From sequence record PV636260.1: 48,147 nucleotides of DNA; one strand, 5' to 3'. This DNA is from a phage. The notes below the pieces were generated by a model. That model was not told the DNA's origin. It ran no database searches and saw only the letters and a program-made list of their open reading frames with translations. The translations under genes and the position numbers were made by a program. Of the stretch, positions 25,826 to 39,917 are shown in pieces (positions within the stretch are counted from its first letter, which is position 1; each line of letters begins with the position of its first letter).

Positions 25826-26029
25826 TCAATCATTAATTTCGAATTGTCCCTTAGTCATATCCTGCGGGTAATCAATCTCATGCAAGTTTCCATCGTCGCC
25901 GTACACATATATGAGTCTCTTTGCTTTACTAACCTTTTCCACATCGTAAGAGCATCCCGCTGAGAAAGCATCACTATTGCGTGATGTAATGCATCGAACC
26001 TGATCGCCTTTCTTCGGTAAGTTAGCCAT
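25826..26029 (-). CDS. hypothetical protein
   Basis: ORF, TAATG coupling with upstream gene. Confidence 0.5.
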   Translation of the reverse strand: MANLPKKGDQVRCITSRNSDAFSAGCSYDVEKVSKAKRLIYVYGDDGNLHEIDYPQDMTKGQFEIND

Positions 26030-26259: not shown

Positions 26260-26603
26260 TATTTACCTCTCCCAAATGAAAAATTAACACCTAAAACCTG
26301 ATTGCAAACTGATTCCATGTATCGCAACTGATATTGAGCAACCTTTGAAGGGCTTAATTCATCAGTAAATAAGTCATCAACATTGATTTCTTTTTTATGC
26401 TTGCGCTTCCATGCCTTGATGATATTGGGCAGGATTCGCTCGCTTTTCCAGGCTGCAAACTCAGCTTGATTCGTTGAAACAGGAGTAAGTTGTTTTTCGA
26501 TCTGGTTTAGCAACTCGGCGGCCGCTCCTTTTATATGCAACTGGTCGCCGATCGCATCAAGGATTTCACGAGCTTGCTTCTCTGACAGGTTAATCGTAAT
26601 CAT
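26259..26603 (-). CDS. hypothetical protein
   Basis: ORF, translationally coupled. Confidence 0.5.
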   Translation of the reverse strand: MITINLSEKQAREILDAIGDQLHIKGAAAELLNQIEKQLTPVSTNQAEFAAWKSERILPNIIKAWKRKHKKEINVDDLFTDELSPSKVAQYQLRYMESVCNQVLGVNFSFGRGK

Positions 26604-26809
26604 GCCTCTTCTCCCTCATCTTCGATCGGTGTAAAAAACTGAGTGTTCACTGCCGGGTTGTAATAAACCCCGTCATCATAGTCGCTTTCTTTCACTTCAA
26701 TGAAAACGTCGCAACCGTCATGCATGAAATCACCGTTATCAGTATGAACGAGTTCGAATACTTCAGAAGTTTTATTGCAAGTGAAAAACTTATCAGTTGA
26801 CACCATCAT
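26600..26809 (-). CDS. hypothetical small acidic protein
   Basis: ORF with upstream element and hairpin; Asp/Glu-rich. Confidence 0.5.
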   Translation of the reverse strand: MMVSTDKFFTCNKTSEVFELVHTDNGDFMHDGCDVFIEVKESDYDDGVYYNPAVNTQFFTPIEDEGEEA

Positions 26810-26837
26810 TTCTATTTTCTCTCTTCGTTGTCGATGA

Positions 26838-26887
26838 GGTGACTATATCAAATCACCCCACCGACGTTTTAGCAATTAGTGCTATTT
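26838..26887 (-). promoter_or_regulatory. repeated element (ATAGCACTAATTGCTAAAAC) plus hairpin with -10-like TATAGT
   Basis: Stop codon TAG of the kinase gene lies inside the element; hairpin GGTGA-N10-TCACC. Confidence 0.55.
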
Positions 26888-27454
26888 GTTGATGAACGTA
26901 GCGGCTATGTGCTGAGCGGTAATTTCAGGATGACCCTCAACAGAGAAGAAATCACATTCCTGATAACCGTTAACCCCGATCATATCGTCCAGGTAGATAT
27001 AATCGCGACTGTCGTTATCGAAGTTGCAACCGTTGCGATGTATGCGGCATAGCTTGACCTTGATATCGCCTTCAATCATTTGCAAGATCTCGTCTTTGAA
27101 TCCCCCGTCAGTAAATACCGAAAGTGAGTGCGACTCTTTCACCTTGCTTTCCGCTCGCATACCGAAGAATCGATTTCCGAACTGCGGCTTGATGACTTCC
27201 TCGCTAATCCAGATCATAAACTGGCGCGGGCTTTTACCGTTCAGGATTGACGCTGGCTCTTCTTTGTAACGACGGTCCTCATACAAGAACATGAAATACT
27301 CGTAGTTAGTTTCACCCAGGATTGCCCGAGCAATCTCAAACATTGGTGCTTTGAAGCTGCGCAAAGCTACATGATCGTAAGTGTCAGCCAGGATGCATCC
27401 GATAGTGTCCTTGCCTGCTCCAGGAGCGCCGTTTAAAATGATAGCTGTTTTCAT
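26882..27454 (-). CDS. P-loop nucleotide kinase (dNMP kinase / PNK kinase-like)
   Basis: N-terminal Walker A ILNGAPGAGKDT. Confidence 0.65.
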   Translation of the reverse strand: MKTAIILNGAPGAGKDTIGCILADTYDHVALRSFKAPMFEIARAILGETNYEYFMFLYEDRRYKEEPASILNGKSPRQFMIWISEEVIKPQFGNRFFGMRAESKVKESHSLSVFTDGGFKDEILQMIEGDIKVKLCRIHRNGCNFDNDSRDYIYLDDMIGVNGYQECDFFSVEGHPEITAQHIAATFINK

Positions 27455-27455
27455 A

Positions 27456-27566
27456 TCAGTATCTCCCTAAAAATAATTTTGCCATATTGATAATAGTGTG
27501 ATTGATGATTAGCAGGATGATAACCGTCAATACCGGATGTGCTGCAATAAATTCGTATAGGTTCAT
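27456..27566 (-). CDS. 36-aa hydrophobic peptide between phosphatase and kinase (not in ORF track)
   Basis: ATGA overlap with phosphatase stop, TGA then 1 nt before the kinase ATG; RBS GGGGTAGAG; MNLYEFIAAHPVLTVIILLIINHTIINMAKLFLGRY. Confidence 0.4.
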   Translation of the reverse strand: MNLYEFIAAHPVLTVIILLIINHTIINMAKLFLGRY

Positions 27567-28096
27567 TTCTCTACCCCGTGCGATTTTAAATGATCGTGAA
27601 CGTTATCGCCATAGTCAACTACAGCATATGTGGTTATTCCAAGCGACCGGAATAATGGAATAATTTGCGGTGAATCATCCCAAGCCGCGAGGATGTTTTC
27701 AATACCGATAGCTCGCACCGCTTCCTCTTTCATCACTGTGTCTTTCCGGTTGTCGGTGTGCGGTCGCATGACTAAGTAATCATATCGCGCACCGTGATGC
27801 TTAAGCCATAACTCAGATGCGTAACGAACCTCATCACTTCGCCCGGTTAAAACTATTACGTGATACCCAGCGGCAAACATAGAGTTCATCACCTCAATCG
27901 TGCTCTGGATGGGGTTATCAAATATTGCGGCTCGATTAAACTCAGACCAGCTTTCAGTCAAGTGCAAATCCTTTTTTGGCAACAGGTGAATGCGCTTTGA
28001 TCCGTCACTCAGTGTTCCGTCAAAGTCAAAGATTGCGACGCGGCGCGGACCGAGAAACAGGTTGATAGTTTGACCCCAAATTGTAATTTTATCCAT
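27563..28096 (-). CDS. HAD-superfamily phosphatase (PNK 3'-phosphatase-like)
   Basis: Motif I FDFDGTL near N-terminus; later VLTGR and Asp-rich motifs. Confidence 0.7.
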   Translation of the reverse strand: MDKITIWGQTINLFLGPRRVAIFDFDGTLSDGSKRIHLLPKKDLHLTESWSEFNRAAIFDNPIQSTIEVMNSMFAAGYHVIVLTGRSDEVRYASELWLKHHGARYDYLVMRPHTDNRKDTVMKEEAVRAIGIENILAAWDDSPQIIPLFRSLGITTYAVVDYGDNVHDHLKSHGVEK

Positions 28097-28132
28097 GATT
28101 TATTCCTCTGATCGGTTGTTTAACTCAACGAA

Positions 28133-28181
28133 GGGCACTATATCAAATGCCCTTGAGCAAGTTTTAGCAATTCGTGCTATT
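28133..28181 (-). promoter_or_regulatory. repeated element (ATAGCACGAATTGCTAAAAC) plus hairpin with TATAGT
   Basis: Hairpin GGGCA-N10-TGCCC; element abuts the stop codon of 28180..28626. Confidence 0.55.
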
Positions 28182-28626
28182 ACCAGTAATCTAACTCGCG
28201 TCCAACCCAGGCGTCAAAGTCACTTTGGCAGAATGTGCCGCTATAATTTTCCATCATTTCATCGATCAGGAAGTTGGCTGGCTCTCCGATGCTATAGAAG
28301 TATAAATCAGCAGCGTTACGCGCCCAGCGCCCGGCATCTTTCTTGCTCATCTTCCAGTATTTAATTGCAATCTTCTTGAATGCGCGAACTACGCGCTTGC
28401 GGATCTTGATATGCTTGTATACCGCATTGCAGCCGTAAGCCATATATTCATTGTTGCCAAGATTCTGCATGATGTACGGATTAACGTCTTTTGACGTAAT
28501 CATCAGTTCGCCATCTCCGCGACGCGCATAATAAATGCTTGCTGTCATGTAGTGACCTTTGAACATTCCAATGCCGTACAGGGTATGTTCATCGTTAGGT
28601 GTATCAATGCAAATCAAATGTTTCAT
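28180..28626 (-). CDS. hypothetical protein
   Basis: Start moved to ATG 28626 with RBS GAGGGAA. Confidence 0.5.
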   Translation of the reverse strand: MKHLICIDTPNDEHTLYGIGMFKGHYMTASIYYARRGDGELMITSKDVNPYIMQNLGNNEYMAYGCNAVYKHIKIRKRVVRAFKKIAIKYWKMSKKDAGRWARNAADLYFYSIGEPANFLIDEMMENYSGTFCQSDFDAWVGRELDYW

Positions 28627-28651
28627 GAGTGTTCCCTCGTTCGTTGGTGTG

Positions 28652-28700
28652 GGGGAATCATAGCGCATTCCCCTTGATAGGTTTTAGCAATTCGTGCTAT
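28652..28700 (-). promoter_or_regulatory. repeated element plus hairpin with TATGAT
   Basis: ATAGCACGAATTGCTAAAAC; hairpin GGGGAAT-N8-ATTCCCC. Confidence 0.55.
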
Positions 28701-28902
28701 TCGTTTTAATAGTGATGCAAAAATAATTTTTTAAGCACGTCACCACGCGCGCTGAATCGACTTGTGGGAGCATTAAAATTTCGTGGACCAATTGCACTGC
28801 CGACACCTCAGATTTGTAGTAGTGTGCGATTCTGGAGGTATTTGGGCGCATTCCTTCCACTGCGTCACGCGCTGCATCTTCTGCTGTCATGATAGTAGCC
28901 AT
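28684..28902 (-). CDS. hypothetical protein (uncertain; 3' end reads through the repeated element)
   Basis: ORF track only; weak RBS. Confidence 0.3.
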   Translation of the reverse strand: MATIMTAEDAARDAVEGMRPNTSRIAHYYKSEVSAVQLVHEILMLPQVDSARVVTCLKNYFCITIKTNSTNC

Positions 28903-29010
28903 AAAACACCCTTAAGAGATAATGTCAGGACCAGGAGGCAGAATAGCAACTCCTGAAATGATGGCGGCTCGTTATTCCAGTTAGAAAAGTCTGGCATAGT
29001 GTTTTCTCCA

Positions 29011-29040
29011 AAAGAAAGGGGAACCGCTCAGAGTCGATTC
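29011..29040 (-). terminator. terminator-like hairpin downstream of 29051..29689
   Basis: GGGGAATCGACTCTGAGCGGTTCCCC then TTTCTTTT on minus strand. Confidence 0.5.
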
Positions 29041-29050
29041 CCCGTTAAAA

Positions 29051-29689
29051 TTACATGATGAACAATAGCGAAATCGAAGCGACCAAGAGAACAATCGCAA
29101 TAGCCAGGCCAGACAAGTCTGCTTTCTCTTCAAACTTCAGTGCTGGCTTGCGGTCAGCATTAATAGGCTTGACGTTGCTAATCTTGCTGGTGTTGATCTT
29201 GCCGTTGGCGCGGAAGGTGCGCTTGCGCTTCTTGCCGAACGTTGCAAACTTAGTGCCGCCGCTATTCCAGCGAAGACCCTCTCCGTTGTGCGTTACGGTT
29301 GCAATGCGGTTGCGGCCCGTGTCGTCGGTAATTACAGCCGTGTGCTTAGCGTGCTCAGAGGGAACGTCGTAAATTTTGCCAACAGTAAATTTTTTGGTGT
29401 TATCGCTGATACATTCGAATTTCATAAATTTTACCTCTTTATTATGCAGTTGGTTGATTGCTTCGATTACGTCGTTAAATTTAACACCATCCACGATTCG
29501 ATGGAAGATATATTTTGAACTGCCGCCATACGGAAGGAAGATCTCCTGATATTCGTGACGCCGTACAACGTTTACGTTACTACCGTACTCATCAACTATA
29601 ACGAAGCTGTCGTCATTGACGCGAGCGCCTTCGTAGATTTTGCCGTACTTAAAACCAGATCCTATACTTGATACGCATTCAAATTTCAT
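29051..29689 (-). CDS. tail-anchored membrane protein with tandem duplicated domain
   Basis: Two repeats starting MKFEC(V/I)S...GKIY; basic linker; C-terminal TM helix LSGLAIAIVLLVASISLLFIM. Confidence 0.55.
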   Translation of the reverse strand: MKFECVSSIGSGFKYGKIYEGARVNDDSFVIVDEYGSNVNVVRRHEYQEIFLPYGGSSKYIFHRIVDGVKFNDVIEAINQLHNKEVKFMKFECISDNTKKFTVGKIYDVPSEHAKHTAVITDDTGRNRIATVTHNGEGLRWNSGGTKFATFGKKRKRTFRANGKINTSKISNVKPINADRKPALKFEEKADLSGLAIAIVLLVASISLLFIM

Positions 29690-29973
29690 GGTCTAACCTT
29701 CCTGTAAGGCTTGATTGATAACATCACGTATTGCGTGAAGTCGCATTCTTGCTCGTCATACCCGCGATTGATGTATGGCGTCACATCGGTAACATCGGAT
29801 ACCCTGGCGTGAACTTCCCACCCGGTAAACTCACCGCGATCGAACTCGCGTAGCTCCAGAATATCGCCAGGCCGGAAGTTTCGATCATTGACGCGGAACT
29901 CTGCCGTTTTGGTGCCGTTCATTACTCCAATAAAATGTACCGTGTTGATCTTAAGTTTGTGAATATTGCTCAT
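29686..29973 (-). CDS. ASCH-domain protein
   Basis: GxKxxExR signature (NGTKTAEFR) near N-terminus. Confidence 0.55.
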   Translation of the reverse strand: MSNIHKLKINTVHFIGVMNGTKTAEFRVNDRNFRPGDILELREFDRGEFTGWEVHARVSDVTDVTPYINRGYDEQECDFTQYVMLSIKPYRKVRP

Positions 29974-30163
29974 CTTCCTTCACCTCGAATGTTACGTTCC
30001 AAAATTTATTGCCGCAAGAATGATAGGTTACGTCATGCGGAGTTAGTTCGTGCAATGCATGACCGATGATTTCCATGCGATCGTTCGGTGCCAGGCATCG
30101 AAGTGATTCACGAAGGCGTGAAGCCTTGTCGTAAATCTGCCACTGCGTGAGTCGTGTAGCCAT
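29951..30163 (-). CDS. hypothetical protein (start revised to ATG 30163)
   Basis: Strong RBS AAGGAA before internal ATG; the track start is a TTG. Confidence 0.45.
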   Translation of the reverse strand: MATRLTQWQIYDKASRLRESLRCLAPNDRMEIIGHALHELTPHDVTYHSCGNKFWNVTFEVKEDEQYSQT

Positions 30164-30173
30164 AGCTAATTCC

Positions 30174-30251
30174 TTATTTGCAAAATGGGCAGGTTGATTT
30201 ATTTCCGCTGCCACCATGATTAGGGCAGCACAATTTCTCAATTGGCGTCAT
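30174..30251 (-). CDS. 25-aa Cys-rich mini-protein (not in ORF track)
   Basis: RBS GAGGAA 7 nt before ATG; MTPIEKLCCPNHGGSGNKSTCPFCK; stop TAA overlaps the next RBS. Confidence 0.35.
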   Translation of the reverse strand: MTPIEKLCCPNHGGSGNKSTCPFCK

Positions 30252-30285
30252 AACTGATTCCTCTGATTGGTTGCCATGCTTCAAT

Positions 30286-30335
30286 AAGGCCACTATATCA
30301 AATGGCCTTGCGGAAGGTTTAGCAATTCGTGCTAT
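30286..30335 (-). promoter_or_regulatory. repeated element plus hairpin with TATAGT
   Basis: ATAGCACGAATTGCTAAAC; hairpin AAGGCCA-N10-TGGCCTT. Confidence 0.55.
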
Positions 30336-30481
30336 CGTTTAACACACATTGTTTTTACTTCGTATCCGAACGGCTTGTTTTCTGCAATTACTTCACGAGC
30401 TTTGTTACATGATTGCTGACTCTCCATGTATACGTGATCCGGCCCGGTGCTCATCAGTATAATCAATACCCATGCAGCCAT
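30332..30481 (-). CDS. 49-aa hypothetical protein with hydrophobic N-terminus (not in ORF track)
   Basis: TAATG coupling to upstream gene, RBS GGTGA; stop TAG is the TAG of the repeated element. Confidence 0.4.
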   Translation of the reverse strand: MAAWVLIILMSTGPDHVYMESQQSCNKAREVIAENKPFGYEVKTMCVKR

Positions 30482-30987
30482 TATTTCACCTCGTAGCGTA
30501 CAAGCGTTCCGCGCTTAATGCTGATTTCACCTGATACCGTATTGTTCTTGAAGCTGCCGTGATGCAATAGAAGCGTGATGATATCGTCGTGCACCTCAAT
30601 AGTTTTTGGTATCGCGGTAATCTCAACCCAAGAATCGCTGCTAATCTGGACACCTTTTAGCTTTGCGCTAAGTGGCATGTTCTCGATCTGAGAGCACTGT
30701 ATAGACGGCTTGATTTCTGGCTTTGCAGCTTTGAATATCGAGCCTTCAATCTTCCAGCTATAATACAAGCTGTAAGCATTATGACCGTCACTCATAATGT
30801 AGTGGTAGTCCTTATTTGGTGAGTTTTCTTTATTCACTTCATTATGTCTGGCAATAAACCACTCCAGATTAAGCTGCGACACCTTATCAGTGGCCCATGT
30901 ACCCTTATCTTTATCGGTGAACGTAATTTCACCACATCCCATGCTGATAAATTTGATCGGGAATTTAACGTCTTCTAATTTCAACAT
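30481..30987 (-). CDS. hypothetical protein
   Basis: ORF preceded by element, hairpin and RBS AAGAGGAAA. Confidence 0.55.
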   Translation of the reverse strand: MLKLEDVKFPIKFISMGCGEITFTDKDKGTWATDKVSQLNLEWFIARHNEVNKENSPNKDYHYIMSDGHNAYSLYYSWKIEGSIFKAAKPEIKPSIQCSQIENMPLSAKLKGVQISSDSWVEITAIPKTIEVHDDIITLLLHHGSFKNNTVSGEISIKRGTLVRYEVK

Positions 30988-31013
30988 AATGATTTCCTCT
31001 TAGTGGTTGATGT

Positions 31014-31061
31014 GGGATTGTACCAGTCAGGACGAATCCCCTTTTAACAATTCGTGCTTAG
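31014..31061 (-). promoter_or_regulatory. repeated element (AGCACGAATTGTTAAAAG) plus hairpin with TACAAT
   Basis: Sequence match and position. Confidence 0.5.
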
Positions 31062-31552
31062 TAGACTAGCTCGCACTCAATAGAGAACGGTTCGGAGTCG
31101 CGATGGAAGAAGCAAAGTGACTCTTTATTCATCCCACCCCAAAAACCTACAGCATTGAGTTGTTCATTGCCAACGTAAGCTAGGGTGCTGGTAATTTCCT
31201 CAAAGTCAACAATAACCGGGAACGTGCGATTCTCATAACCAGGGCGCATAGGATACCCGCCATTGTTGAGAAGTCGAACCTTGCGCGGCTTGATGTTTGC
31301 CTGGACTTCCCATTTAAAAAAGAACATCGTTCCGTCCTTCTCGTTGAAGTCAGCCGGGCCAAATGCCGGACTAACCGATAGGCCGTAATCAAGATCGTAC
31401 ACGCCAGCTTTAACCAGGTCATCGACCTTTACGCGGTAGCCACCGCCGCCCAAGCTATCATCGCACTTCACCGCGTCAACGATAATCGGGTCTGATTCCA
31501 GGTCGCGAGTAAAGCCTTTGTAACCGCCAGTGCACAGTAATTTAATTTTCAT
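31058..31552 (-). CDS. hypothetical protein (start revised to ATG 31552)
   Basis: RBS GAGGACGAGAG; the longer track ORF would run through the regulatory element. Confidence 0.5.
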   Translation of the reverse strand: MKIKLLCTGGYKGFTRDLESDPIIVDAVKCDDSLGGGGYRVKVDDLVKAGVYDLDYGLSVSPAFGPADFNEKDGTMFFFKWEVQANIKPRKVRLLNNGGYPMRPGYENRTFPVIVDFEEITSTLAYVGNEQLNAVGFWGGMNKESLCFFHRDSEPFSIECELVY

Positions 31553-31577
31553 GCTCTCGTCCTCATTCGTTGTCGAT

Positions 31578-31629
31578 GTGGTTACTATATCGCAACCACA
31601 TGATCGCGTTTTAACAAAAAGTGCTATTT
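31578..31629 (-). promoter_or_regulatory. repeated element (ATAGCACTTTTTGTTAAAAC) plus hairpin with TATAGT
   Basis: Hairpin GTGGTT-N10-AACCAC. Confidence 0.55.
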
Positions 31630-31863
31630 CATCAGAGTGAAGCAACGAATCTCGTTTGGCTTAAAGATGAATGTCTGTATGCCATTGATAAGACCTGCGT
31701 GAATAACTTCGAACCCAAACTCTTTCTTTACATACCTTACAAATTCGAAGGTTGTACGATAATCACCATTGAATCCAAACGTCTCGGGGTTAAGCTGGAA
31801 TGCTTCGCCTGGGTTTAGTCGCATCAAGATACCTTTCAGGGCGTCATGCTTAATTTTGCTCAT
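31624..31863 (-). CDS. hypothetical protein
   Basis: ORF in operon. Confidence 0.5.
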   Translation of the reverse strand: MSKIKHDALKGILMRLNPGEAFQLNPETFGFNGDYRTTFEFVRYVKKEFGFEVIHAGLINGIQTFIFKPNEIRCFTLMK

Positions 31864-31865
31864 GA

Positions 31866-32441
31866 TTACTTCTCCTCATCCAGTAAATGCGAGCGGAATT
31901 GCTCGACCAGCTTGTTGAGATCGGATACCGAGATATTGCTGCCTTCAAAATCCCTCAAATCGATTCTGAACGCTTCAACCTTCGCATTGAACACGTCGGC
32001 TATGCTCTTTCGCTTCCGACCTCTCTTGCCCTGTTTAGCTTCGCATATGACCTTCTTCGCTTCCTCACCTTCTAGTTCGGTTATGAATATCGTCACCCCG
32101 TCAACCTGATCGCGGTTGATTCGCACAGATACGGCCTTATTGTGCACCTTGAGCATGTGGCGCTTGATGATATTGGACACATACGACGCGGTGAGTCGTT
32201 CTAGCAACCAGGCTGATCGAGATGTGTACTCGTTAACGACTGCCTCATCAATCTGGTCATCGTTAAGTTCCACGCCATGAGTAGCCTTTACAATCTCGGC
32301 CTGCTCATTGACGTACACTTCAACCATTTGCTTTCCGGTGATTGAGAACTCATTCCCTGATTGGTTGATTTCAATCGCCTTTCGAATATAGTCCGGCAGG
32401 TTGAGTTCAAATTCTGTCACTTCTTTAAGCTGAGTTTTCAC
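31866..32441 (-). CDS. hypothetical protein, first gene of the leftward early operon
   Basis: GTG start after GAGGT; 191 aa. Confidence 0.5.
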   Translation of the reverse strand: MKTQLKEVTEFELNLPDYIRKAIEINQSGNEFSITGKQMVEVYVNEQAEIVKATHGVELNDDQIDEAVVNEYTSRSAWLLERLTASYVSNIIKRHMLKVHNKAVSVRINRDQVDGVTIFITELEGEEAKKVICEAKQGKRGRKRKSIADVFNAKVEAFRIDLRDFEGSNISVSDLNKLVEQFRSHLLDEEK

Positions 32442-35922: not shown

Positions 35923-36339
35923 ATGAAATCAATCAAACTGAAATGTACTTACGCCGATAAAATCACAGGATTTGAAATTAACAACCTATACAAAGGTCGA
36001 GAGCGTTTCGATGGCACTCGCGAAGTAAAATTAAAATGCGGCAAGTATTTAAAACTTGAAAAGCATGATGAATTACAGATTCACGGATCTGATGAAATCT
36101 TCTTCGCGAAGTTCACTGAGTTGAAAACAAAGACGCTCAAGTGCACCGGGCTTGACCATCGCAACCCAATGAAAAAATCATTCAAAGTTGGCAAGCGTTA
36201 CCAGGTTGAAAGCGGTCGCGCTCTCGGTGGAGTAGCTGGTTACATCTTTGATGAAGATGGTTGTCGCTGGACCTTATTTCGCGAAGAGGTTGGTTTTAGT
36301 ATCGCAGACGGCACAAACTTTGAGGCCAAATACTTATAA
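35923..36339 (+). CDS. hypothetical protein
   Basis: RBS CAGGAG. Confidence 0.55.
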   Translation: MKSIKLKCTYADKITGFEINNLYKGRERFDGTREVKLKCGKYLKLEKHDELQIHGSDEIFFAKFTELKTKTLKCTGLDHRNPMKKSFKVGKRYQVESGRALGGVAGYIFDEDGCRWTLFREEVGFSIADGTNFEAKYL

Positions 36340-39740: not shown

Positions 39741-39917
39741 TTAATCTATCGCAATAAATTCCAGGTAGTGACCGTTCAGAGGCGCTTGGATTGCTGAACC
39801 TCGCCCGTCGTAAATCTCAAATAATCCCCCACAGAAATCATAACCAACACTATAGATCTGATTTACACGGAATGGAAGTGTCTTGGAGTCATTTCGGATG
39901 CACTTAACTAGCTTCAT
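39741..39917 (-). CDS. 58-aa hypothetical protein (not in ORF track)
   Basis: RBS AAAGAGG before ATG 39917; preceded by repeated element and hairpin. Confidence 0.45.
   Translation of the reverse strand: MKLVKCIRNDSKTLPFRVNQIYSVGYDFCGGLFEIYDGRGSAIQAPLNGHYLEFIAID

Follow-up and report, generated by a model that had tools for sequence, protein, structure and literature searches.

The 212-amino-acid protein encoded at positions 29051-29689 (minus strand) of the window, by which we mean the whole 48,147-nucleotide stretch of phage DNA analysed here (PV636260.1), is best explained as a tail-anchored binding module that gained a second barrel domain in frame within the genus Tunavirus, that is made as two nested products, and that the phage can do without; we hold this combined reading with about even confidence. 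It is already known that the family is catalogued as hypothetical and that its anchor was predicted earlier in phage T1. The fold assignment, the link to the domain families DUF6501 and DUF7244, and the duplication history with its probable nested start are new.

The window represents nearly the whole genome of a T1-like phage, and over the 3 kb around the gene it shares 88-92% identity with Tunavirus phages (family Drexlerviridae) of Escherichia and Shigella. The reading frame starts with ATG, fills 29051..29689 exactly, with its stop codon at 29051-29053, and is the orthologue of phrog_10580, SH6 gp15 and Bas13_0070; the phrog_10580 profile matches the protein with an E value of 1.1e-132 over residues 1-212 of 212. 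Homologues fall into 44 protein clusters, and those that are named come from T1-like phages of E. coli and Shigella. Beyond placing the protein in phrog_10580, which has no assigned function, searches of PHROGs, Pfam and NCBIfam gave no functional match; no Pfam or NCBIfam family passed its threshold, NCBIfam returning no match of any kind, and we found no experiment on any member of the family in the literature and family libraries searched.

The gene sits in a block of small ORFs, all on the minus strand, between the genome end and the terminase genes, and its position is that of the family of phrog_10580 and T1 orf68: the gene comes after an ASCH-like gene or a 49-aa gene, and is followed by a terminator and then by the 72-aa and 148-aa genes and pnk. 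Neither cor nor any other known exclusion gene adjoins it. The first ATG lies 7 nt downstream of the Shine-Dalgarno sequence AGGAAGG (29697..29703, minus strand; duplex energy -7.2 kcal/mol). In all two-barrel loci (14/14) this ATG and the stop codon of the upstream DUF3850/ASCH gene overlap (ATGA), which suggests translational coupling. At the other end, a rho-independent terminator (29008..29043, minus strand), with a 9 bp stem that includes six G-C pairs and is followed by TTTCTTTT, begins 8 nt past the stop codon. This element also appears in the T1 annotation, and its position right after the stop codon indicates that the gene closes a transcription unit. From its genome position the gene would be expected to be expressed early.

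Several neighbouring elements merit description in their own right. The upstream gene (29686-29973, minus strand) encodes a 95-aa DUF3850/ASCH-like protein that carries the RefSeq label 'RNA-binding protein'; it is missing in T1 and Bas12, both of which carry the anchored-barrel gene, and an obligatory partnership between the two genes is thereby ruled out. Directly past the terminator is a 36-aa ORF, MPDFSNWNNEPPSFQELLFCLLVLTLSLKGVLWLLS (approximately 28887-28997, minus strand), which is shorter than the usual ORF length cut-offs and corresponds to T1 orf67, described in GenBank as having a single transmembrane helix oriented N-out and C-in. Further upstream, an intergenic region carries a conserved motif, TAGCACGAATTGCTAAA, and then a hairpin, AAGGCCATTTGATATAGTGGCCTT (30270-30330, minus strand), and with a nucleotide diversity (pi) of 0.049 this is among the least variable stretches of the region. 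In T1, IME347 and SRT8 the element directly precedes the anchored-barrel gene, and in the window the small ORF, the ASCH-like gene and the 212-aa gene all follow it. It may serve in regulation or processing, and no good match to a sigma-70 promoter was found at it.

The original prediction described two consecutive copies of a domain of about 85 residues. The repeat is real, but the homologous unit is a barrel of about 65 residues, and 88 residues is the spacing of the copies. Each copy does start with MKFEC(V/I)S, as claimed, and G-K-I-Y occupies positions 16-19 of both. On self-alignment the repeat is significant: residues 1-88 and 89-212 give a local BLOSUM62 score of 64, compared with 24.8 +/- 4.3 (maximum 50) for shuffled sequences, none of which reached 64 in 2000 trials. 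Comparison of barrel-1 and barrel-2 orthologue profiles with hhalign, built from 24 and 23 sequences respectively, gives a probability of 97% and an E value of 4.7e-11 over 39 columns with 36% identity, and AlphaFold2 predicts the same order of six strands in both halves (residues 2-8, 18-25, 28-32, 38-43, 50-53 and 60-65 in the first copy, and 88-95, 106-110, 117-121, 127-132, 138-141 and 146-150 in the second). Taken together, the shuffled controls, the profile comparison and the common strand order establish that the duplication is real, and the first two rule out a chance repeat.

The homologous segments are residues 1-66 and 89-152, with sequence similarity between the copies detectable over the first 40-58 or so residues only. 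Barrel 1 (residues 1-66; 29492..29689, minus strand) is a predicted six-stranded small beta-barrel and the more variable copy, with a pN/pS ratio of 0.195; barrel 2 (residues 89-152; 29234..29425, minus strand), also predicted to be a six-stranded beta-barrel, is the most constrained part of the protein (pN/pS 0.062). Between them lie a predicted helix (residues 71-82) and a junction (together residues 67-88; 29426..29491, minus strand) that have no counterpart past barrel 2 and whose pS is 0.054, compared with about 0.35 elsewhere; it is because copy 1 carries this extra 22-residue helix and junction behind its barrel that the copies are spaced 88 residues apart. Barrel 1 is the better-predicted domain (pLDDT 88-91), while barrel 2 modelled alone reaches a pLDDT of 89.6 and is confident in one of five models, and both structure models derive from shallow alignments of 20 and 7 rows.

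The remainder of the protein is a Lys/Arg-rich linker and a single C-terminal transmembrane helix, both as originally described. The linker (residues 153-192; 29114..29233, minus strand) has 13 Lys and Arg residues against four Asp and Glu, a net charge of +9 and a pI of 10.8. It is predicted to be disordered (pLDDT 31-38), and both its length, 20-48 aa, and its sequence differ between lineages. Its net charge is only +1 in IME347 and +2 in SRT8, and the notion that it is a conserved nucleic-acid- or lipid-binding element is thus ruled out. The only hydrophobic window in the protein spans residues 184-212, with a mean Kyte-Doolittle value of 2.82 for the 19-mer at 194-212 and no residue after it; AlphaFold2 places a helix at 192-211, and the strongly hydrophobic residues 193-212 (29054..29113, minus strand), with which the protein ends, would constitute a tail anchor. 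Linker and anchor exist in two or more unrelated sequence versions, found in the 212-aa and 218-aa proteins, whose properties are the same, which argues that tethering and anchoring matter and the exact sequences do not.

Sequence-based evidence also supports the tail-anchored layout with cytoplasmic-face domains that had been put forward. The 212-aa protein lacks an N-terminal signal sequence or hydrophobic segment, the positive charges are all N-terminal of the helix with no residue beyond it, and the barrel-linker-anchor layout is kept in orthologues of only 30-41% identity. A sole C-terminal hydrophobic helix is likewise present in the T1, IME347, SRT8 and UP30-type relatives, and the T1 GenBank record states of orf68 'single transmembrane domain predicted N-in and C-out'. 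The predicted topology is accordingly N-in and C-out, with the barrels on the cytoplasmic face of the membrane. Bacterial C-tail-anchored inner-membrane proteins include ElaB, YqjD, DjlC and Flk. TssL, a further protein of this class that is inserted by YidC (PMC3426401), resembles the phage protein in that its N-terminal domain faces the cytoplasm, a basic stretch borders the membrane and one helix forms the very C-terminus, although the soluble domains of such proteins are unrelated to the phage barrels. Literature searches on phage tail-anchored proteins, T1 early membrane proteins and essentiality screens covering Tunavirus phages found nothing relevant.

A tblastn search of 50,697 phage records found the gene in 72, with the two-barrel frame intact in 58 of them; among the 40 matches listed, all are T1-like phages of E. 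coli or Shigella, and those examined individually belong to the Tunavirinae. T1 orf68 (ST68 / CPTT1_010), at 124 aa, is 80% identical to residues 89-212 and shares with the window gene its Shine-Dalgarno core, its terminator and its genome position, whereas T1 is without approximately 860 bp that comprise the small ORF, the ASCH-like gene and barrel 1; the T1 joint lies at a short sequence, CAACCAACTG...GAGGTAAAATTT, that resembles the upstream intergenic sequence. Sertoctavirus SRT8 gp48 (104 aa), Bas12_0070 (104 aa) and Badaguanvirus IME347 gp15 (126 aa) each combine a single barrel with a linker and a terminal anchor and occupy the same place in the gene order, with 30-41% identity to residues 89-212, and in these three and T1 orf68 a terminal hydrophobic 18-mer is followed by 0-2 residues. 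The presence of the one-barrel form at the same position in T1 and the sister genera argues that the second barrel is a Tunavirus-specific in-frame addition, and that one barrel with an anchor is the common form.

Constraint is uneven along the protein: pN/pS is lowest in barrel 2 (0.06), higher in barrel 1 (0.20) and highest in the linker and transmembrane helix (0.36-0.39). The gene is absent from Klebsiella T1-like phages that have the flanking DNA in common, and the orthologues in ADB-2 (L016; one frameshift, in barrel 2) and vB_SsoS_008 (L018; several) are frameshifted, these being either real pseudogenes or sequencing errors. The absence and, unless they are sequencing errors, the frameshifted copies indicate that the gene can be lost, and by this comparison it is apparently a dispensable accessory gene. 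The surrounding region (26600-32200), compared with related loci (L004-L014), has strongly mosaic nucleotide diversity: gene interiors have pi values of 0.3-0.5, and nearly every gene boundary, together with 28650-29040, has values of 0.02-0.07. Such a mosaic could reflect conserved initiation regions or, alternatively, recombination linkers that join exchangeable modules.

The junction between the barrels retains the signals of a translation start. A Shine-Dalgarno sequence, AAAGAGGT (29433..29440, minus strand), lies 7 nt 5' of the in-frame ATG of Met89 (29423..29425, minus strand), which corresponds to the only start in T1 and is the probable start of a 124-aa isoform comprising barrel 2, linker and anchor. 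This sequence is invariant in the window and in all 13 related loci that keep the junction (13/13), and its GAGGT core and spacing are those of the annotated ribosome-binding site of T1 orf68 (GGAGGT). Its pairing with the anti-Shine-Dalgarno sequence, at -7.1 kcal/mol, compares with -7.2 kcal/mol at the first start; among internal in-frame ATGs in the window only 10 of 345, Met89 included, have a Shine-Dalgarno sequence as strong or stronger, and the 70 nt around the Met89 start are nearly unstructured (-3.4 kcal/mol). A set of 12 intact orthologues shows a drop in synonymous diversity over codons 61-90, from about 0.35 to about 0.06. At the nucleotide level there is a low-diversity block (29390..29509, minus strand) centred just 5' of Met89, with 3-5 variable columns per 30 nt, compared with 9-20 elsewhere, and a pi of 0.032; the diversity profile of the surrounding 5.6 kb dips at every true gene boundary, and this internal dip is equally deep.

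The block extends some 90 nt 5' of Met89, however, which exceeds a typical initiation region, and it could instead reflect a recombination linker or a recent sweep. An internal sigma-70 promoter as the source of the short form was rejected: a promoter scan gave no suitable match, and by eye there is only a CATAAT before the Shine-Dalgarno sequence with no usable -35 element, and a transcript from this hexamer would cut into the Shine-Dalgarno sequence. Retention of the old ribosome-binding site inside the frame most likely means that the gene makes two products with a common anchor, and a 124-aa short isoform is thus probably made besides the 212-aa protein.

A barrel profile built from both copies found only 31 matches at E<=0.001 among 1.84 billion representative proteins. 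One group of these consists of one-barrel proteins of 104-145 aa with a C-terminal anchor (P0084, P0090, P0093 and P0103), and another of soluble proteins with 2-13 tandem copies of the pattern KC[VI]..G...LT.GK.Y.V....DGD..I.DD.G. Several of the tandem proteins pass the Pfam threshold for DUF6501, and one (P0087) also that for DUF7244; the DUF6501 scores of P0085, P0087 and P0097, all retrieved with the barrel profile, range from 25 to 73 bits. The 212-aa protein itself scores 12.6-13.7 bits with DUF6501 (PF20111; gathering threshold 23.8) and 14.9 bits with DUF7244 (PF23896; E value 0.028, residues 90-113 only; gathering threshold 27), and these sub-threshold scores rule out direct membership in either family. 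Comparison of the barrels with the DUF7244 family by hhalign gives a probability of 13% and a P value of 0.002; given this weak direct comparison, the link rests on intermediate sequences, and that to DUF6501 is transitive only.

Both families nonetheless share with the 212-aa protein the N-terminal motif K-C-[IV]-x(4-7)-F-x-[VI]-G-K-x-Y ... D-D-x-G and a recurrent tandem repetition of the barrel, whereas none of the DUF7244 members aligned (49-68 aa) has a membrane anchor. DUF7244 belongs to the SH3 clan, and a 2026 paper (PMC13164509) presents it as an SH3 domain that stands alone in the lysis module of the Drexlerviridae; structure matches of the barrels in BFVD are mostly single-domain phage proteins of 56-81 aa. 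We conclude that the barrels belong, as divergent members, to a diffuse group of small SH3-like barrels in phages, a group in which tandem multiplication is common.

Other proteins encoded in the window show traces of the same motif. Between a 383-aa gene and the holin lies the gene for a 58-aa stand-alone DUF7244 protein (phrog_4788, 99 bits; 39741-39917, minus strand). BLASTP aligns this protein with barrel 2 at 29% identity over 52 aa (E value 0.04), and it shares with the barrels the motif K-C-I...F-x-V-x-x-I-Y...D-G-x-G. A 138-aa protein (phrog_2684; 35923-36339, plus strand) has two apparent barrel motifs, IKLKCTYADKITGFEINNLYKG and TLKCTG...KKSFKVGKRYQV...FDEDG, and matches the barrel HMM weakly (E value 0.0011 in a search of the window's own ORFs); like the 212-aa protein it may contain an internal barrel duplication, in this case without a membrane anchor. 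A 67-aa protein (phrog_4927; approximately 25826-26029, minus strand) with the motif VRCITSRNSDAFSAGCSYDV...YGDDGN is a weak single-barrel relative (E value 0.014), and both phrog_4927 and phrog_10169 give weak matches with barrel 2. These weak relatives point to a diffuse family with several members per genome.

The closest solved structure to the modelled barrels is the crystal structure of Gp54 of phage Bas11 (PDB 9AXB). Gp54, a six-stranded barrel with a prominent beta1-beta2 loop, has no known function and is not essential; the defence protein CapRel-SJ46 is triggered directly by Gp54, but not even by its close homologues, and a counter-defence role was proposed for it by its discoverers (PMC11578894). 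The models suggest that the barrels have in common with Gp54 (PF25180) both the six-stranded small beta-barrel and the long beta1-beta2 loop. A sequence search of the PDB with barrel 2 gave no match at E<=10, BLASTP of the barrels against Gp54 gave no match, the PF25180 profile ('Phage antiviral trigger protein Gp54') matched neither barrel at E<=10 (Gp54 of Bas11 itself scores 6.3e-34), and hhalign against 12 Gp54 homologues gave probabilities below 3%. Sequence homology to Gp54 was thus found by none of BLASTP, PF25180 and hhalign, and the relation indicated by the models is at the level of the fold only. The proteins also differ in that Gp54 is a soluble single domain of 66 aa, encoded elsewhere in its genome, whereas the 212-aa protein is anchored and has two barrels; no Gp54 homologue was found elsewhere in the window. 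Since Gp54 has no known function, the fold gives no mechanism.

The reading that these observations best support is of a membrane-tethered binding module on the cytoplasmic face, for which we infer a role in binding or sequestration. Its conserved core would be a six-stranded barrel of about 65 aa, of the fold type of Bas11 Gp54 and a remote sequence relative of the DUF6501 and DUF7244 SH3-like phage barrels, followed by a flexible tether of 20-48 residues and an extreme C-terminal hydrophobic helix. The helix would insert post-translationally, N-in and C-out, so that the barrel hangs in the cytoplasm a few nanometres off the membrane. In Tunavirus, a second, diverged barrel with a short helix would have been joined in frame at the 5' end, directly behind the ASCH-like gene, to give two products with one anchor, a two-barrel protein of 212 aa and a one-barrel protein of 124 aa, of which T1 would have the latter only. 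The barrel may hold or relocate a cytoplasmic or membrane-proximal partner, either a host or a phage factor, at the inner membrane, with host takeover or counter-defence as its likely role, and the extra barrel may confer a second specificity or more avidity. Two of the alternatives considered below, counter-defence and the control of exclusion or DNA entry, are special cases of this reading.

In the first, a Gp54-type barrel would bind a host defence protein that the anchor then sequesters, or the barrel would act as an immune decoy sensed by a CapRel-type sensor. Gp54 being the closest solved structure speaks for such a role, and the patchy distribution, pseudogenes, and gain and loss of domains fit a gene caught up in an arms race. 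The likeness to Gp54 is at fold level only, however, even close homologues of Gp54 fail to trigger CapRel-SJ46 (PMC11578894), and no anti-defence activity is known for DUF6501, DUF7244 or Gp54 proteins; we regard this more specific function as unlikely. A still more specific proposal, that the two nested tail-anchored isoforms serve as membrane traps for a host immune or takeover target and draw a soluble defence sensor to the membrane, is a speculation to which we give only slight credence. If true, it would make the Gp54, DUF7244 and DUF6501 barrels general modular host-protein binders whose specificity is tuned by tandem multiplication.

T4 Imm and HK97 gp15 have been described as acting on DNA entry from the cytoplasmic side, and exclusion or injection-related functions formed part of the original prediction for this protein. 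Barrels placed beneath the inner membrane might in like manner block or modulate the entry of a second phage's genome, or aid that of the phage itself. The predicted inner-membrane location with a cytoplasmic domain is in keeping with this, as are the dispensability of the gene, its place in a small-ORF accessory region near the genome end, and a diversity (a variable barrel 1 and swapped linker/anchor variants) typical of accessory genes that face other phages. Set against these are the lack of similarity to known exclusion proteins in Pfam, PHROGs and NCBIfam, the published report that T1-like phages already exclude by means of the outer-membrane lipoprotein Cor (PMC13164509), and a topology that exposes virtually nothing on the periplasmic side to an arriving tail or tape-measure protein, and we consider a role of this kind rather improbable.

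We think it similarly doubtful that the one-barrel product alone matters and that barrel 1 is the decaying remnant of a once separate upstream gene, read through by chance. T1 and the sister genera do manage with a single barrel, the internal ribosome-binding site is intact in all loci with the junction, the database entries P0027, P0030, P0036 and L018 are truncated or frameshifted within barrel 1, and the first start in DELF2 (L015) is GTG and not ATG. Barrel 1 is under purifying selection, however (pN/pS 0.195 at a pS of 0.37), and is the better predicted of the two domains (pLDDT 88-91); moreover, the full-length frame is intact in 58 of the 72 matching phage records, and its first start has a good Shine-Dalgarno sequence and is coupled to the ASCH-like gene in 14 of the 14 loci checked. 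Finally, the remote relation of the barrels to DUF7244, the SH3 protein of the Drexlerviridae lysis module (PMC13164509) encoded here at 39741-39917, could suggest periplasmic, cell-wall-binding SH3b-like barrels that are tied to lysis and anchored N-out, but this is very improbable given that there is no signal peptide, that a stretch of about 190 residues would need to be moved across the membrane although the C-terminal helix is the sole hydrophobic segment, that the positive charges flank the helix N-terminally and the T1 annotation is N-in, and that approximately 10 kb separate the lysis cassette from this gene, which closes a transcription unit of its own.

In summary, phage genomes very commonly encode small beta-barrel proteins of unknown function, and Gp54 of Bas11 is the only one that has been studied in depth. 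The gene described here would encode an inner-membrane-tethered barrel of the Gp54 kind, which is present in two in-frame copies and is probably made as two isoforms. It does not overturn current knowledge, and its value lies in annotation and in a testable lead, in that T1-like and BASEL phages, of which Bas13 carries the gene, offer a compact and genetically tractable case for finding the partners of such barrels. It would also add a nested internal start in a phage gene, together with a tail-anchored phage protein, a class that has seldom been described.
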